Notes under the pieces: generated by a model
What the model saw: only the letters and a program-made list of their open reading frames with translations
Told to the model about the DNA's origin: nothing
Databases searched by the model: none
NCBI GenBank assembly: GCA_963665115.1
Contig: OY762007.1
Coordinates: 3,072,001-3,136,000, forward strand
Direction of reading: 5' to 3'
DNA length: 64,000 nt
From: an uncultured Rivularia sp.
Lineage (GTDB): Bacteria > Cyanobacteriota > Cyanobacteriia > Cyanobacteriales > Nostocaceae
Part shown: positions 14,514 to 64,000 of the stretch, piece by piece
Layout of the letters: each line of letters opens with the position of its first letter
How positions within the stretch are numbered: the stretch's first letter is position 1
Position numbers and translations under genes: made by a program

Positions 14514-16016
14514 ATGATTCCCCAAAATTCCAAAGCCGTCACTTCGGATAAATACGCCCAAACTAATCCCAATCCAATTAATCAAGATGAACGTCCTGAC
14601 AAGCAAGAAGAAGCTTGCGGGGTTTTTGGCGTTTACGCACCCAAAGAAGACGTTGCTAGACTAACTTATTTCGGATTGTATGCCCTCCAGCATAGAGGTC
14701 AAGAATCCGCTGGGATTGCCACTTTTGAAGACAAAAAGGTACACCTGCATAAAGATATGGGTTTAGTATCTCAAGTCTTCAACGAAACTATCCTTGATGA
14801 CTTACCAGGTAGTATTGCTGTCGGTCATACCCGTTATTCCACCACAGGTTCAAGCCATGTAGCCAATGCCCAACCTGCTATTGTCCAAACTCGACTAGGT
14901 GAAATAGCCCTTGCACACAACGGTAATTTAGTCAACACAAAGCAGTTGCGCGACGAACTGCTCGAAAAAAGCTGTAACCTAACTACCACAACCGACTCAG
15001 AAATGATTGCCTTGGCGATCGCCGAAGAATTAAACGACGGTTCCCAATTATTGGAAGCTGCGATTCGGGCTTTTCATCGTTGCCGAGGAGCCTTTAGTTT
15101 AGTAATCGGTTCCAGTGAAGGTGTAATGGGAGTGCGCGATCCAAACGGCATTCGTCCCCTGGTAATTGGAACTTTAGAGGGAAGTCCAACACGTTACGTT
15201 TTAGCATCCGAAACCTGCGCTTTGGATATTATTGGCGCTAAATACCTGCGAGATGTAGAGCCAGGTGAATTGGTTTGGATTACCGAATCAGGTTTAGCCT
15301 CTTTTCAGTGGAGTAAAAAGCAAGAAAGAAAGCTATGTATCTTTGAAATGTTTTACTTTGCTCGTCCCGATAGCATCATGAACGAGGAAAGCTTGTATAG
15401 CTACCGGATGAGATTAGGGCGACGATTAGCACAAGAATCTCTTGTAGATGCCGATATAGTTTTTGGAGTTCCAGATTCGGGAATCCCTGCTGCAATTGGT
15501 TTCTCAGAAGTTTCCGGTATACCTTACGTAGAAGGATTGATCAAAAATCGTTACGTCGGCAGAACCTTCATTCAGCCTACCCAAGCAATGCGCGAATCGG
15601 GTATAAGAATGAAACTAAATCCACTTAAAGACGTATTATCCGGGAAAAGAGTAATCATCATTGATGATTCAATTGTGCGAGGTACCACCAGTCGCAACTT
15701 AGTAAAATCCTTGTACGAAGCGGGTGCAACCGAAGTACATATGCGAATTTCTTCCCCTCCAGTTACCCATCCCTGTTTTTACGGTATTGATACCGATAGT
15801 CAAGATCAATTAATTGCTGCAACCAAATCAGTAAAAGAAATTGCCAAACACTTAGAAGTAGACAGTCTGGCATATCTAAGCTGGAAAGGAATGTTAGAAG
15901 AAACCAAACAAGATACCAATAGTTTTTGTTCCGCGTGTTTCACCGGAGATTATCCCGTACCAGTACCCGAAAGACTCAAACGTTCTAAATTAATTTTAGA
16001 AGAAGCAGTTGTTTAA
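14514..16016 (+). CDS. purF: Amidophosphoribosyltransferase
   Basis: EEACGVFG, LQHRGQE, GHTRYST, IIDDSIVRGTT. Confidence 0.97.
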   Translation: MIPQNSKAVTSDKYAQTNPNPINQDERPDKQEEACGVFGVYAPKEDVARLTYFGLYALQHRGQESAGIATFEDKKVHLHKDMGLVSQVFNETILDDLPGSIAVGHTRYSTTGSSHVANAQPAIVQTRLGEIALAHNGNLVNTKQLRDELLEKSCNLTTTTDSEMIALAIAEELNDGSQLLEAAIRAFHRCRGAFSLVIGSSEGVMGVRDPNGIRPLVIGTLEGSPTRYVLASETCALDIIGAKYLRDVEPGELVWITESGLASFQWSKKQERKLCIFEMFYFARPDSIMNEESLYSYRMRLGRRLAQESLVDADIVFGVPDSGIPAAIGFSEVSGIPYVEGLIKNRYVGRTFIQPTQAMRESGIRMKLNPLKDVLSGKRVIIIDDSIVRGTTSRNLVKSLYEAGATEVHMRISSPPVTHPCFYGIDTDSQDQLIAATKSVKEIAKHLEVDSLAYLSWKGMLEETKQDTNSFCSACFTGDYPVPVPERLKRSKLILEEAVV

Positions 16017-16067
16017 TAATTTTGCATTAAATTGGGTTTGTTTTTTCAGAACACTATAAATCACTTA

Positions 16068-16285
16068 TGTAGAGACGTAGCAGTGCTACGTCTTTTTGAT
16101 TATGTAAAGTACATTCGGACGGGCAGGGATGCCCATCCCACAAGAGTTGTAGTATAACTGGTTCCCAGCCTCCCTCTATAACTGGTTCCCAGTCTCTGGC
16201 TGGGAACCTATTGCTTGAGGCTCTGCCTCCAATAAATACGCGAGGCAGAAGCTCGAAAACTGCATTCCCAGGTGAAACCTGGAAG
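16068..16285. repeat. Cluster of small palindromic dispersed repeats
   Basis: GTAGAGACGTAGCAGTGCTACGTCT; GGGCAGGGATGCCC; GGTTCCCAGTCTCTGGCTGGGAACC; GAGGCTCTGCCTC...GAGGCAG; TATAACTGGTTCCCAG occurs twice. Confidence 0.65.
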
Positions 16286-16390
16286 TAACTCTTCACTCCT
16301 AACTAATAATTAATAAATCCTCAATTTTGATGGAATTAATATAGTCATTTATGTAATATGTAGTGAAATTGCGCTCTTTTAAAACCACTT

Positions 16391-16810
16391 ATGGAACCGA
16401 TAACCGCTGCAACTATCGCCACCCTTGCTTTTACCAAAGCCTTTGAAAAGACGATTGAAAAATTTACTGAAGCAACCTGGAGTAAAATTGAAGCGCTACG
16501 CAAGAAGATTTGGCAGAAATTAAGCGGAAATAAACAAGCGCAAAAAGTTTTAACTGCGGCTGAAACTGGTTCAAAAGAAGATTTGAAATTAGTTGCTCAA
16601 TTTTTGGAGCAAGAAATGGAATGGGATAAAAACTTTGCTCAAGAAGTACAAACTTTAGCTCGTGAGATCGATCAAGAAATTAATATCGGTCAAATACAAG
16701 GGCAAAACGTGCAAAATGTTTATGGTGGAGAAGCGCAACAAAATAATGCAAATAACACCAATGCACCAGTAATTCAAGGTGGTAGCGGACACAATATTAC
16801 ATTTAATTGA
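16391..16810 (+). CDS. Small helical (Bell/HeLL-like) domain protein with an N/Q/G-rich C-terminal motif; in frame with the downstream NB-ARC
   Basis: 139 aa; hydrophobic N-terminal helix, helical bundle, tail INIGQIQGQNVQNVYGGEAQQNNANNTNAPVIQGGSGHNITFN; family assignment is inference. Confidence 0.7.
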   Translation: MEPITAATIATLAFTKAFEKTIEKFTEATWSKIEALRKKIWQKLSGNKQAQKVLTAAETGSKEDLKLVAQFLEQEMEWDKNFAQEVQTLAREIDQEINIGQIQGQNVQNVYGGEAQQNNANNTNAPVIQGGSGHNITFN

Positions 16811-19800
16811 CTACAGTCGTCGGCAGGGGAACCGACAAAGTATCATCCCATTAAATATATACCGAAATTTGGCAGCGATAACTTTGTCGGAAGACAAGAT
16901 GAACTTGCCAAAATTCACGATAAGTTTTCAGAAACAAACAATAAAGTCGCCATTTCTTCTGTATCTGGTATGGGTGGTGTTGGAAAAACAGAGTTAGCGA
17001 CGCAGTATGCACGAAAACACGAAAATGATTATCCCGGTGGAATTTGCTGGTTAAATGTTAGAGGTACAAATTTAGCTGCGGGAATTATTCAATTTGTCCA
17101 ACAGATGGGTTTGGAAGTTCCCCAAAAAGATTTCCAAGAAAATGCGCTGACTCTAACTCAACAAGTAGCTTGGTGTTGGCAACATTGGCAACCACCCGAA
17201 GGTTTTGTGTTGATAATATTAGATGATGTGACTGATTTAGAAGATATTTCTGAGTTACTACCATCTTTTCAGCGCTTCCGGGTTTTGATGACAACCAGGT
17301 TGCGAGATATCGACACTAATGTTGAGGAAATATCCCTTGATGTGTTGTTACCAGAGGAAGCTTTAGAATTATTCAAAAATTTAATTGGTGAAAAGAAAGT
17401 AAATAAAGAATTAGAAACAGCTAACGAACTATGTAAATGGTTGGGATATTTACCTTTAGGGATAGAGTTAGTCGGAAGGTATATCAAGAAAAAACCTCCC
17501 CATTTTACTTTAAAGAAAATGTTGCAGCAGTTGCAAGAACAACGACTGTATCAAGAAGCGATGAATCCCCAGCAAAAAGGATTACGTACAGCCCAATTAG
17601 GAGTTTTAGACGCATTTGAATTAAGTTGGAAAGAACTCAATCCTACAACACAGGAGTTTGCTACATTATTAAGTCTATTTGCAGCAGATATTTTTGAGTG
17701 GCAATGGGTAGAATCGATAAGTAAATCCCTCAATTGGGATGAATCTGATGTTGAGGTAGCTATTGAGGAAGTTTACCAACGTTACTTGGTGCAGTCTTTA
17801 GAATATGAAGATGTATCTTACTATCAAATTCATCCTTTAATTCGAGAGTTTTTACAAGATAAATTAAAAGCATCTGCACAAATAAATGAGTTCAAACAAG
17901 CATTTACCAGCACTTTTATTGAAATTGCTCAAACAATTCCTGATTCAGTAACCCTGGAATTTATTAACTCAGTCAAAAACGCTATTCCCCATTTAACAGA
18001 AGTCGCAGAAAATCATCTTGATGCACTCAGCGATGAAAATTTATATTGGGCTTTTACTGGTTTAACTAATTTTTACCAGGGACAAGGTTTATATGCTTTA
18101 GCTGAACCTTGGACACAGCAATGCGTATCAGAACTAAAATCCCGTTTGGGAGAAAATCATCCCTATTTTGCTACCAGCTTGAACAATTTAGCTGAACTCT
18201 ACAGAAACATGGGAAGGTACGAAGAAGCTGAACCTATTTATATCCAAGCTTTGGAGTTAAGAAAACAGCTACTCGGAGTTAATCATCCCGATGTTGCAAT
18301 GAGCTTGAACAATTTAGCTAATCTCTACCACTTGCAAGGAAAGTACGAAGCAGCAGAACCTCTTTATATTCAAGCATTGGAGTTATATAAACAGCTACAG
18401 GGAGTTAATCATCCCGATGTTGCAACCAGCTTGAACAATTTAGCTGAACTTTACCGTTCTCAAGGAAAGTACGAAGCAGCAGAACCCCTTTATATTCAAG
18501 CTTTGGAGTTATATAAACAGCGACTCGGAGAAAATCATCCCCATGTTGCAATGAGCTTGAACAATTTAGCTTTACTCTACGATTCTCAAGGAAAGTACGA
18601 ACTAGCAGAACCCCTTTTTCTGCAAGCTTTGGAGTTATATAAACAGCTACTCGGAGAAAATCATCCCCATGTCGCAATGAGCTTGAACAATTTAGCTGAA
18701 CTTTACCGTTCTCAAGGAAAGTACGAAGCAGCAGAACCCCTTTATATCCAAGCTTTGGAGTTAAGAAAACAGCTTCTCGGAGAAAATCATCCCGACACTG
18801 CAATGAGTTTGAACAATTTATCTCTACTCTACAACTCCCAAGGAAAGTACGAAGCAGCAGAAACCTCTTTTAATTCAAGCTTTGGAGTTAACAAAACAGC
18901 TACTCGGAGAAAACCATCCCCACGTTGCTATGAGCTTCAACAATTTAGCAGGACTCTACAAATCCCAAGGAAGGTACGAGGAAGCAGAACCTCTTTATAT
19001 CCAATCTTTGGAGTTAACAAAACAGCTACTCGGAGTTAATCATCCCCACACAGCAATGAGCTTGAACAATTTAGCTCTACTCTACAACTCCCAAGGAAGG
19101 TACGAAGCAGCAGAACCTCTTTTTATTCAAGCATTGCAGTTAAGAAAACAGCTACTCGGAGTAAATCATCCCGATGTTGCTACCAGCTTGAGCAGTTTAG
19201 CTTACCTCTACTACTCCCAAGGAAGGTACGAAGCAGCAGAACCACTTTTGATTCAAGCATTGGAGTTATGTAAACAGCTACTCGGAGTTAATCATCCCGA
19301 TGTCGCAACCATTTTGAACAATTTAGCTTTACTCTACAACTCTCAAGGAAGGTATGAAGCAGCAGAACCTCTTTTGATTCAAGCTTTGGAGTTAACAAAA
19401 CAGCTACAGGGAGTTAATCATCCCTCCGTCGCAACCAGTTTGAACAATTTAGCTTTACTCTACAACTCTCAAGGAAGGTATGAAGCAGCAGAACCACTTT
19501 TGATTCAAGCATTGGAGTTAAGTAAACAGCTACAGGGAGTTAATCATCCCGATGTCGCAACCAGTTTGAACAATTTAGCTTTACTCTACAACTCTCAAGG
19601 AAAGTACGAAGCAGCAGAACCTCTTTATATTCAAGCATTGGAGTTATATAAACAGCTACAGGGAGTTAATCATCCCGATGTTGCAACCAGCTTGAACAAT
19701 TTAGCTGAACTTTACCGTTCTCAAGGAAAGTACGAAGCAGCAGAACCTCTTTATATTCAAGCATTGCAGTTAAGAAAACAGCTACTCGGAGTTAATCATC

Positions 19801-20255
19801 CCGACACAGCAGGCAGTTTGAACAATTTAGCTTTACTCTACGGTTCTCAAGGAAAGTACGAACTAGCAGAACCCCTTTTTCTGCAAGCTTTGGAGTTATA
19901 TAAACAGCTACTCGGAGAAAATCATCCCCATGTCGCAATGAGCTTGAACAATTTAGCTGCACTCTACTATTCTCAAGGAAGGTACGAAGAAGCTCAACCC
20001 CTTTATATCCAAGCTTTGGAGTTAAGAAAACAGCTTCTCGGAGAAAATCATCCCGACACTGCAATGAGTTTGAACAATTTAGCTTATCTCTACTTTTCCA
20101 TCGGAAAGTACGAAGAAGCTGAACCTCTTTATATCCAAGCTGTTGAGATTGCGGAGCGGATTTTGGGAGAAAATCACCCCAATACGGTGCTTTATCGGAA
20201 AAATTTGGAATATTTACGCGCACAGCGGGGAGAAGGTGGAAGCAGCGAAGAATAA
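16811..20255 (+). CDS. NB-ARC (STAND) ATPase with about 16 42-aa TPR repeats (NLR-like); no canonical start upstream of the FVGR motif; +1 frameshift at about 18862
   Basis: Open frame from 16811: ...NFVGRQDEL...GMGGVGKTELA (Walker A), LIILDDV (Walker B), MTTR, GYLPLGI, YQIHPLIRE, then HPDVATSLNNLAxLYxSQGxYEAAEPL repeats. Confidence 0.88.
18151..20200 (+). repeat. 126-bp intragenic TPR tandem repeats
   Basis: AATCATCCC...TTGAACAATTTAG recurs every 126 nt. Confidence 0.9.
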
Positions 20256-20291
20256 ACAGTGAGCAGTGAGCAGTGAGCAGTTTCCGTGATT

Positions 20292-20656
20292 GTCATTGCG
20301 AATGTAGCGAAGCGAAATGTTAGCGGAGCGTGTCCGGAACGGACATAGCAATCACAATAACTCGTTGGTGTTGAAGATGTTGGGATTGCTTCCTTCGTCG
20401 CAATGACGGAAACCGAGTTGTCATTGCGAGTGGAACGGAGTGGAACGAAGCAATCGCAATAACTCGTTGGTGTTGAAGATGTTGGGATTGCTTCCTTCGT
20501 CGCAATGACAGAAACCGAGTTGTCATTGCGAGTGGAACGGAGTGGAACGAAGCAATCGCAATAACTCGTTGGTGTTGAAGATGTTGGGATTGCTTCCTTC
20601 GTCGCAATGACGGTTTGAGAGTTACTCGTTGGGATTGCTTCCTTCGTCGCTATGAC
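20292..20656. repeat. Array of GTCATTGCG...CGCAATGAC palindromic elements (3 full units plus one right arm; 102-bp period)
   Basis: Units 20292-20407, 20420-20509, 20522-20611; extra arm 20631-20656. Confidence 0.9.
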
Positions 20657-20688
20657 AGCTTCAAAATAACTCGTTGGTGATGACAGTT

Positions 20689-20979
20689 TCACAATAAACC
20701 GTCATACAAATCACACCATTGTGGATTCATACTATTAACTAAATCGATTTTCTTTTGTCTGGAACCAGCTTTAATTTGTTTCTCTCTTGCTATAGCATCA
20801 TTAATATCAGCAAAAATTTCGTAATAAACCAGTTTATTAACGTTGTACTTTTTTGTAAAACCTGCAATTAATTTTTCTTTGTGTTCGTAAACTCTTCTAA
20901 TTAAATCATTCGTAACACCTGTATAAAGCACTGTATTATATTTATTTGTGATTATATAGATATAGTATTGCTGGCTCAT
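20689..20979 (-). CDS. Stand-alone GIY-YIG nuclease
   Basis: YYIYI...LYTGVTNDLIRRVYEH...AIAREKQIK...NPQW. Confidence 0.92.
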   Translation of the reverse strand: MSQQYYIYIITNKYNTVLYTGVTNDLIRRVYEHKEKLIAGFTKKYNVNKLVYYEIFADINDAIAREKQIKAGSRQKKIDLVNSMNPQWCDLYDGLL

Positions 20980-20988
20980 TGATTGTAA

Positions 20989-21255
20989 TTACGCTTTACC
21001 CTTTCTGATTGCTTGGTTTCTTTGACGTAGTTTCTCAATTACTTTTCTACCGTCAAGTCTTTCCCCACCTTCGGAAGCTTCAACCCCAACCATAATTTCC
21101 CGTTTCAATTCCTCAAATCTACCTTTGTAAATCCTTTCTCTTTCCTTGAGCAATTTAATACCCGCAATAATCACTTCCTCAGTTGAGGAATATTTACCAC
21201 TTGCAATTTGACTTTGAATAAATTCTTCTAATTCAGGAGTTAGGGAGATACTTGT
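20989..21255 (-). CDS. ParD-like ribbon-helix-helix antitoxin; start codon apparently lost (ACA at the expected ATG); no cognate toxin adjacent
   Basis: Frame extends to (T)SISLTPELEEFIQSQIASGKYSSTEEVIIAGIKLL, the typical CC2985/ParD pattern. Confidence 0.7.
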   Translation of the reverse strand, partial: TSISLTPELEEFIQSQIASGKYSSTEEVIIAGIKLLKERERIYKGRFEELKREIMVGVEASEGGERLDGRKVIEKLRQRNQAIRKGKA

Positions 21256-62114: not shown

Positions 62115-64000
62115 TTATTTTCCACGTAAATATTCTAGATTTCTCCGAAAAGTCAACGTATTCGGGTGATTTTTACCCAAAACCCGTTCCGCAATCTCCA
62201 AAGCTTGGATATAAAGTGGTTCTGCTTGTTCGTAATTTCCTTGGGAACGGTAAAGTTCAGCTAAATTGTTCAAACTGGTTGCAACCAGGGGATGATTAAC
62301 TCCGAGTAGCTGTTTATATAACTCCAAAGCTTGGAGATACAGAGGTTCTGCTGCTTCGTACTTTCCTTGGGAACGGTAAAGTTCAGCTAAATTGTTCAAA
62401 CTAGTTGCAACGTCGGGATGATTTTCTCCGAGTAGCTGTTTATATAACTCCAAAGCTTTGAGATACAGAGGTTCTGCTGCTGTGTACCTTCCTTGGGAAT
62501 AGTAGAGTGCAGCTAAATTGTTCAAACTGCTTGCAATGTGAGGATGATTGACACCTAAAAGCCGTTCCGCAATCTCCAAAGCTTGGAGAAACAGAGGTTC
62601 GGCTGCTTCGTACCTTCCTTGGGAACTGTAGAGTTGAGCTAAATTGCTCAAATTGCTTGCAACGTCGGGATGATTTTCTCCGAGTAGCTGTTTTCTTAAC
62701 TCCAAAGCTTGGAGATAAAGAGCTTCTGCTGCTTCGTACCTTCCTTGAGAATAGTAGAGTAGTGCTAAATTGCTCAAACTCATTGCAACGTGAGGATGAT
62801 TTTCTCCGAATAGCTGTTTATATAACCCTAACGCTTGAAGAAACAGAGGTTCTGCTGCTTCGTACCTTCCTTGGGAATAGTAGAGTAGTGCTAAATTGCT
62901 CAAACTCGTTGCAACTTGAGGATGATTAACTCCGAGTAGCTGTTTACATAAATGCAAAGCTTGGAGGTAAAGAGGTTCTGCTGCTTCGTACCTTCCTTGA
63001 GAATAGTAGAGTAGTGCTAAATTGCTCAAACTCATTGCAACGTGAGGATGATTTTCTCCGAATAGCTGTTTGTATAACTTCAATGCTTGGAGGTACAGAG
63101 GTTCTGCTGCTTCGTAACTTCCTTGGGAATAGTAGAATTGAGCTAAATTGTTCAAACTGGTTGCAACTTCGGGATGATTTTCTCCGAGTAGCTTTTTTCC
63201 TAATTCCAAAGCTTGGAGGTAGAGAGGTTCGGCTGCTTCGTACCTTCCTTGGGAACTGTAGAGTAGTGCTAAATTGTTCAAACTAGTTGTAACACCGGGA
63301 TGATTCTCTCCGAGTAGCTGTTTGTATAACTCCAATGATTGGAGAAACAGAGGTTTCTGCTGCTTCGTACCTCCCTTGGGAATAATAGAGTTGAGCTAAA
63401 TTGTTTAAACTCATTGCAACGTCGGGATGATTTTCTCCGAGTAGCTGTTTGTATAATTCCAATGCTTGGAGAAACAGAGGTTCGGCTGCTTCGTACCTTC
63501 CTTGAGAATAGTAGAGTTGAGCTAAATTGTTCAAACTCAATGCAACGCGGGGATGATTTTCTCCGAATAGCTGTTTGTATAGCTCCAATGCTTGGAGGTA
63601 CAGAGGTTCGGCTGCTTCGTACCTTCCTTGGGAATAGTAGAGTTGAGCTAAATTGTTTAAACTCATTGCAACGCGGGGATGATTAACTCCGAGTGGCTGT
63701 TTGTATAACTCTAATGCTTGGAGGTACAGAGGTTCGGCTGCTTCGTACCTTCCTTGGGAATAGTAGAGTTGAGCTAAATTGTTCAAACTGGTTGCAACGT
63801 CGGGATGATTTTCTCCAAGTAGCTGTTTTCTTAATTCCAAAGCTTGGAGATGCAGAGGTTCGGCTGCTTCATACCTTCCTTGGGAATTGTAGAGATAAGC
63901 TAAATTGTTCAAACTGGTTGCAACGTCGGGATGATTTTCTCCTAAGCGAGATATGACTGCTGAAACACATTGCTGACACCAGGGTTCTGCTAATGCATAT
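62115..64000 (-). CDS. Second NLR-like TPR protein, 3' part only (about 14 repeats of 42 aa); +1 frameshift at about 63355
   Basis: YALAEPWCQQCVSAVISRLGENHP matches the post-NB-ARC junction of 16811-20255; same repeats and C-terminus (NHPNT...RRNLEYLR). Confidence 0.88.

Follow-up and report, generated by a model that had tools for sequence, protein, structure and literature searches.

Bell proteins are helical effectors of 120-160 amino acids (aa) with a MEP-type N-terminus and a tail rich in Q, N, G, V, and I, at least in the accessible portions of the papers that describe them (10.1101/2020.01.06.895854; Bab/Agp, 10.1101/2024.11.07.622273). The gag-pol signal of Moloney murine leukemia virus (MoMLV) consists, in the available part of PMC13517186, of an in-frame stop codon, an 8-nucleotide (nt) spacer with conserved bases, and an H-type pseudoknot. 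Here we describe a gene that resembles both. It lies at positions 16391 to 20255 of a 64,000-nt stretch of contig OY762007.1 from an uncultured Rivularia sp. (hereafter, the window), where a Bell-like open reading frame (ORF) is closed by a TGA and the same frame continues into an NLR-like receptor. An earlier reading of the same letters (the sequence-only reading) had proposed leakage through this stop, but it missed the RNA signal: a stop, an 8-nt spacer, and a predicted H-type pseudoknot. This element is real, and it is widespread in cyanobacteria. Judging from sequence comparisons, it quite probably programs readthrough with a signal like that of murine leukemia virus gag-pol, giving an abundant effector and a rare effector-receptor fusion. 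We consider the recoding signal to be new in kind, because it lacks a defining feature of each known family that we tested; the protein parts were already known. We found no report of a stop-readthrough signal in cyanobacterial NLRs in the open-access literature. The parts of the gene are:

16391..16810, + strand: short effector ORF of 139 aa with a Bell-like helical domain and an N-terminal MEPIT (ORF, predicted helices, and likeness to descriptions of Bell)
16682..16807, + strand: Q/N/G/V/I-rich tail, a predicted amyloid signaling motif, BASS-like (sequence; low-confidence unstructured model of residues 102-139)
16808..16810, + strand: conserved in-frame TGA, followed by C (contigs and homologs)
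16811..16818, + strand: 8-nt spacer, CTACAGTC (conserved bases at positions 5 and 8)
16819..16836, + strand: predicted pseudoknot stem 1, GTCGG (16819-16823) with CCGAC (16832-16836), with an 8-nt loop (minimum-energy hairpin and covariation)
16827..16849, + strand: predicted pseudoknot stem 2, GGGA (16827-16830) with TCCC (16846-16849) (partner shuffles)
16837-16840, + strand: A-rich AAAG loop joining stem 2
16811..16969, + strand: start-less coding stretch of 53 codons, with the FVGR motif at 16883-16894 (translation and dN/dS)
16895..17569, + strand: NB-ARC domain, with Walker A at 16967-16990 (PF00931, E 1.2e-22)
18155..20141, + strand: TPR array of ~16 units of 126 nt, the predicted sensor (domain search and repeat analysis)
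18861..18863, + strand: A-run with one extra base, shifting the frame in TPR unit 6
20253..20255, + strand: final TAA of the TPR frame

The sequence-only reading described the reading frame correctly. The 139-aa ORF ends in ITFN-TGA (16808-16810), the same frame stays open beyond it (LQSSAGEPTK...FVGR...GMGGVGKT), and translation of the window carries it through FVGR and Walker A to 19039. There is indeed no in-frame ATG, GTG, or TTG from the TGA up to the Met at 16970, and the NB-ARC domain does begin upstream of that Met, as the Pfam match starts at residue 29 after the stop.

The TGA is not an assembly error. Contigs from sequencing data read TGA rather than a sense codon: in three of four runs a single contig covers 16431-18266 with 0 differences, and in the fourth, which represents a diverged strain, a contig covers 16699-16861 with 1 difference that is not listed at the stop. 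All four runs are from one study, and the source sample may be among them, so the contigs exclude an assembly error and do not show independent spread. In the RNA runs, the share of words present was only 0.05-0.08. Further downstream, unit 6 of the 16 TPR units has 127 nt vs 126 nt in the others, owing to one extra A near 18862. This position is outside all of the contig pieces listed, and the extra base may be either an assembly error or a real frameshift. With it, the readthrough product would have 882 aa; the length of 1287 aa given earlier for the corrected gene is arithmetically right.

The stop recurs. When 27 genomes of the genus were searched at the protein level, TGA was present at the same junction in 9 loci from 8 genomes, including the source (Bell 65-91% identical), which is above chance. 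A tenth locus, with a Bell that is just 36% identical, shares the downstream bases, though in a shifted frame. Because these bases were kept in a shifted frame while the stop recurred, we suspected an RNA signal. As the proposal of the sequence-only reading requires, the homologs keep the in-frame stop, without a start codon of their own. That reading also asked whether the stop recurs in a paralog upstream of position 64000. The two paralogs in the source genome do not share the element: both are ordinary two-gene pairs, in which a small ORF precedes an NLR that begins at an ATG of its own, with an N/G/Q-rich stretch that matches. No second copy of the element was found in the source genome, where the RNA model (below) gives one match.

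To survey the element more widely, we used an exact pattern (stop, spacer, hairpin, and AAAG) and an RNA model. The exact pattern, run over 185,579 species, matched 31 loci, all of them cyanobacterial; outside the cyanobacteria the search covered exact matches only. In all 31 loci the stop is followed in frame by an ORF of at least 224 aa, and in 30 of them it closes an upstream ORF of at least 106 codons. The exact pattern had 0 matches in viral contigs. As a control, a pattern without the stop was run on metagenomes and a sample of the phylum. Of its 128 matches, 19 have a P-loop downstream in frame, and every one of these carries a stop (18 TGA and 1 TAG); the remaining 109 are mostly unrelated DNA, with 2 truncated copies. 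A blind pattern over 401 genomes of the phylum performed at noise level (8 matches, of which 2 were real), and the reversed control matched more often. The RNA model was built on stem 1 only (stem 2 was never modeled) and gave 81 matches in 240 genome searches. At E values up to 0.05, its matches fell in 34 of the 90 genomes searched from one family and in 29 of the 150 from Rivularia's order, a few of these by chance. We parsed 79 of the 81 matches and dropped 5 as chance hits (L252-254, L256, and L257, with at most 24 bits and no flanking ORFs); one weak match was left out before the final count. Altogether, the pooled 134 loci represent 110 distinct elements. Rfam had no match at its gathering score in 16000-21000, only 3 matches at E 5-7, far below threshold.

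All 110 copies have a stop: 105 TGA, 5 TAG, and 0 TAA. The sequence-only reading singled out TGA-CTA as the context. A C next to the stop belongs to the signal and is present in 104 of the 110 elements, but the CUA codon is not the signal, as the next codon is CTG in 61 copies, CTA in 36, and something else in 13. TGAC is used by 99 of 110 elements and is the rarest stop context in the source genome (1.8% of 3710 long ORFs). Within the spacer, position 8 is C in 110/110 copies and position 5 is A in 109/110, which is partly fixed by the search patterns. Stem 1 is paired in 539 of 550 cells (n = 110; the shuffles have a mean of 458 and a maximum of 481). Its second pair is T-A in 78 copies, C-G in 23, and G-C in 2, and its fourth is G-C in 80, C-G in 20, T-A in 2, A-T in 2, and T-G in 6. 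Stem 1 has many G-U pairs, so the structure appears to form on the mRNA strand. Stem 2, between the loop and bases beyond AAAG, has 3-6 base pairs (bp) in 106/110 copies, which none of 3000 partner shuffles matched, and it shows compensatory swaps (CGGCA/UGCCG vs CGGUA/UACCG). The loop varies from 7 to 12 nt. Covariation therefore argues for an H-type pseudoknot behind an 8-nt spacer. Synonymous divergence is 0.10 inside the element vs 0.39-0.52 around it.

We also noticed some regularities around the stop. The codon before it never ends in G (T in 90, C in 15, and A in 5 of the 110 loci), which no search required, and it mostly encodes Phe, Asp, Asn, Ile, or Pro. Of the five TAG copies (L236, L239, L290, L274, and L177), four have CAT before the stop, and three have non-Bell effectors (TIR or hydrolase-like).

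Beyond the stop, frame 0 is open in 106/110 copies, either for 100 aa or more or until the data end, as compared to 2 and 1 for the other frames, and this despite the variation in loop length. Walker A is in frame in 99/110, and 69 of 85 NB-ARC copies have no ATG, GTG, or TTG before FxGR. The expectation of purifying selection on both sides of the stop is borne out by the ratio of nonsynonymous to synonymous substitution rates (dN/dS): relative to 7-8 kin, this is 0.26 for Bell, 0.40 for the stretch from the pseudoknot to Walker A, and 0.26 for NB-ARC. Across 28 disjoint pairs at 60-97% identity, the part after the pseudoknot has a dN/dS of 0.23, a value biased low by the way the pairs were chosen.

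Surveys that began from the protein split cleanly: loci with the element have no receptor start of their own, while element-free loci that keep the same frame have an ATG. Within the genus, we examined 30 of 35 matches to the Bell profile, and in 12 of these 30, the element is followed by an in-frame STAND ORF without a start. The rest are mostly two-gene pairs or lone ORFs, with one fusion. In a second family, we examined 50 of 80 matches (30 returned by the search and 20 picked by hand that lacked an RNA-model match). The element and an open frame were present in 13 of the 50, and the element was found in broken loci in 3 more; 6 loci with a long ORF in the same frame but no element have an ATG within 4 codons. 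We observed no simple change from stop to sense. Separately, three Bell genes (L337, L341, and L333) have a TAA inside the ORF or the motif, with the frame open beyond and no element; these are probably plain nonsense mutations.

What does the element join? The 139-aa effector belongs to no Pfam, NCBIfam, or PADLOC family, and a profile search of the sequences in PDB gave generic helical matches only. Six helices are predicted over residues 6-107, and the AlphaFold model is a helical bundle with a disordered tail (mean predicted local distance difference test score 69.6). As in Bell, there is a predicted helical bundle of ~100 aa with a hydrophobic N-terminal helix and an acidic residue at position 2-3 (the protein starts MEPIT). 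There is also a Q/N/G/V/I-rich motif: across element loci, these residues make up 52% of the last 30 positions before the stop vs 23% after it. Since the tail before the stop is rich in these residues and the stretch after it is not, the receptor would lack the motif unless the stop is read through. Upstream ORFs are Bell-like in 99/110 copies. Three copies have TIR instead (Pfam), two look like alpha/beta hydrolases (GHSxG-type motifs; Pfam has only DUF7379 below its cut-off), and the remaining ones are broken or cut. Going by these domain assignments, the layout reaches beyond Bell effectors. The downstream domains are NB-ARC or NACHT, with the domain and repeats of a STAND/NLR-like receptor.

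In a tree of NB-ARC domains with 74 rows from element loci and 20 others, element loci do not form one clade, and 14 label changes are needed. (L021, which is one of the 20 others, carries a remnant of the element.) Because the element loci are scattered over the tree, and because the nearest kin of the window's NB-ARC are two-gene types, the block of effector, stop, and pseudoknot has likely moved as a cassette, joining different NB-ARC and NACHT genes. We found no intact fusion of the window's Bell among 544 longer candidates, which is weak evidence; one weak match covers the first 30 residues only.

Several observations concern Bell genes and their surroundings. Run X4 contains two Bell variants across 16547-16861 of the window, and one contig joins 16733 to 16807 with different letters between, which is likely a second Bell with another tail on the same stop element. 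At G000:C1:2899814-2899951 there is an orphan fragment of the window's Bell gene (70% identity across 44 aa), without the tail or an NLR, and a similar fragment is present in G005. The intergenic region between purF and Bell (window 16040-16300) contains very high-copy repeats, with depth ~100-fold over background. Past the end of the gene, tandem repeats of 102 nt and 45 nt with palindromic parts (window 20347-20677 and 20689-20979) lie beside an ORF for a GIY-YIG nuclease, and related repeats separate the genes of a two-gene NLR pair in L010.

How might programmed readthrough work here? A near-cognate tRNA (likely Trp at UGA) would outcompete the release factor, with the pseudoknot positioned where the mRNA enters the ribosome. 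UGA followed by C is a leaky context (PMC7026636), and Trp is the usual residue inserted at UGA in E. coli (PMC11126739), according to the available parts of these articles. A minority of ribosomes would pass the stop, and a single mRNA would then give both an abundant free effector and, in smaller amounts, the effector-receptor fusion. By analogy to work on Bell/BASS and on fungal NLRs, the fusion would oligomerize once its TPRs bind a ligand. Its amyloid motifs would then nucleate and convert the identical motifs on the pool of free Bell, and the released N-terminal Bell helices would kill the infected cell. In the TIR copies, the fusion would seed TIR-TIR assembly.

Other explanations would account for the stop in different ways. 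One is that two separate proteins are made: ribosomes would terminate at the TGA and re-initiate at a non-canonical CUG or CUA or at an overlapping NTG, with the structure tuning the coupling. The first codon is CTG in 61/110 copies and GTG in 2, the T, C, or A before the stop creates an overlapping NTG, and RefSeq calls an ATT start in one copy. Overlaps are also frequent in known Bell/NLR pairs, in the accessible portion of 10.1101/2020.01.06.895854. Nevertheless, we think that re-initiation is improbable, as there are intact loci with first codons AAG, CCA, CCG, CTC, and GAG; the overlapping NTG would set the wrong frame (one open for at least 100 aa in 2/110), never takes the form GTG, and does not exist in the 5 TAG copies; and a receptor made in this way would carry no signaling motif. 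It seems a little less probable still that the mRNA is edited, with the structure guiding an A-to-I conversion that makes UGA or UAG read as Trp. A single A-to-G change converts either TGA or TAG to TGG, and none of the 110 copies has TAA, but a lack of TAA is also expected under readthrough. Also, the position of the target A would differ between TGA and TAG, and the stop is outside the paired region, at a fixed and ribosome-sized distance. Finally, the target motif of E. coli TadA is UACG, and it is not at the stop.

We would give the same slight chance to ribosome bypassing, in which a hop or slide of three bases yields the same two products and the stop is never decoded. Bypassing fits with the retention of frame 0, and the lack of G at the end of the pre-stop codon hints at a role for the P-site tRNA. 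However, matched take-off and landing codons are the rule in known bypassing, and here the take-off codon (TTT, GAT, AAT, or one of 17 others) differs from the landing codon, which is mostly CTR. Hardly credible, in our view, is that the stop reflects a nonsense mutation, a decaying gene, a base-call error, or selenocysteine insertion. It is true that the window's copy has a second break at 18862 and that some copies elsewhere are broken, but the contigs agree, the stop is kept across many families while its flanks diverge, and dN/dS is 0.23-0.40; for the family, decay or error is refuted. So the simple nonsense mutation or base error that the sequence-only reading held in reserve can be set aside: contigs read TGA, the stop recurs, and its flanks are under purifying selection. 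Selenocysteine was rejected in its own right, as there is no SelA and no tRNA-Sec in this 99.9% complete genome (SelB and SelD were outside the search) and the TAG copies exclude it. Genome-wide reassignment of UGA was rejected as well, as TGA ends 899 of 3710 long ORFs.

Several points weigh against programmed readthrough as we have described it. We infer the readthrough, its rate, and the ratio of products from sequences, and in the literature that we searched, we found no account of bacterial ribosomes reading through a stop under the influence of a pseudoknot. The Bell identity and amyloid formation are suggested by resemblance. Both the pattern and the RNA model favor copies that are similar to the seed, so the searches themselves account in part for the spacer length, the C at +4, the stop, and the pairing of stem 1; this bias does not extend to stem 2 or to the loci found from the protein (L034, L311, L315, L361, and L373). 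Stem 2 itself was weakly above shuffles in the first 44 copies (32/2000), its register shifts across lineages, and it has just 2 bp in 4/110 copies. A count of fixed-column pairs on a MAFFT alignment showed little covariation, with stem 2 columns out of register for many rows. The copies are kin, so the shuffle tests overstate. Among NB-ARC copies, 16/85 do have an in-frame ATG, GTG, or TTG before FxGR; 4/110 copies are disrupted shortly past the stop; and in 12 the upstream ORF is short. Nor does every member of the lineage have the stop: two stop-less fusions retain a remnant of the element in which the spacer was replaced. One is a Bell fusion in which the motif was deleted and stem 1 is broken (L314), and the other is a TIR fusion with stem 1 intact (L021). 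And the copy in the source strain may be truncated at 18862.

A more speculative idea, which we consider unlikely, is that the pseudoknot is a switch rather than a fixed leak: infection or translational stress would raise readthrough, and the ribosome itself would arm the receptor. The trigger could be phage tRNAs, a shortage of release factor, or a protein or ligand bound at the invariant bases of the spacer and AAAG. If true, this would be the first family of structure-programmed, selenium-independent stop recoding in cellular genes of bacteria, and any STAND gene could be made by this portable cassette into a self-contained pair of sensor and effector. As to tRNAs, a cluster of 11 tRNA genes at G000:C1:2710034-2711354 includes a second, divergent tRNA-Trp(CCA), a candidate supplier of UGA decoding if it is induced by stress. 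ARAGORN also reports a tRNA with a CTA anticodon (labeled Pyl) and a G at position 33, beside tRNA-Met (G000:C1:203200-203273, minus strand), which may have degenerated or may act as an amber suppressor.

If programmed readthrough is confirmed, there would be a third layout of NLRs beside the two-gene and all-in-one layouts, in which one sequence guarantees that the motifs of receptor and effector match and also sets their ratio. A retrovirus-style readthrough pseudoknot would work on bacterial ribosomes in cellular genes. The element has just 40 nt, which is small enough for testing and reuse. It is common where it is present, yet hidden from annotation. For example, the copy on plasmid pMIC7113.04 (PCC 7113) is split in RefSeq, with an ATT taken as the receptor's start codon, so screens for pairs of motifs would miss such systems.

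In comparing the element to known systems, we rely for the viral signals and for Bell/BASS on the accessible portions of the published accounts. The leaky UGA of phage Q-beta and the UGA-CUA of alphaviruses are similar in that they use UGA, often with CUA next, to make two products that share an N-terminus. The alphavirus signals, though, are long stem-loops of more than 100 nt in eukaryotic hosts, and the Q-beta signal is described without a pseudoknot. Like the bacterial selenocysteine insertion sequence, our element places a structure immediately 3' of an in-frame UGA; it differs in that the source genome has neither SelA nor tRNA-Sec, that some copies use TAG, and that the stop is in a linker instead of an active site. 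The long product that we infer would resemble all-in-one NLRs (effector, NOD, and repeats in one polypeptide), and stop-less fusions via the same linker exist (L314 and L021). But there is no uninterrupted ORF from effector to repeats, and the conserved stop would keep the free effector as the main product. MoMLV has the same geometry of an 8-nt spacer and an H-type pseudoknot that is also protein-coding, and the same layout of a short product and a long fusion, there a structural product and an enzyme fusion. The differences are that our element is in bacterial chromosomal or plasmid genes, mostly uses UGA, spans ~31 nt vs 50 nt, faces bacterial release factors, and has a spacer that starts with CU instead of being G-rich; we see no sign of common descent. 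Closest in their proteins are the Bell/BASS-NLR pairs of multicellular bacteria, including cyanobacteria, in which such an effector is directly upstream of an NB-ARC or NACHT-TPR protein, and the two paralogs in the source genome are such pairs. The terms "readthrough" and "stop codon" are absent from the available text of the Bell/BASS and Bab/Agp papers (10.1101/2020.01.06.895854 and 10.1101/2024.11.07.622273). In those pairs, the receptor has its own start codon and a matching N-terminal motif, whereas the receptor described here has neither, and it seems that both could be obtained only through the stop.

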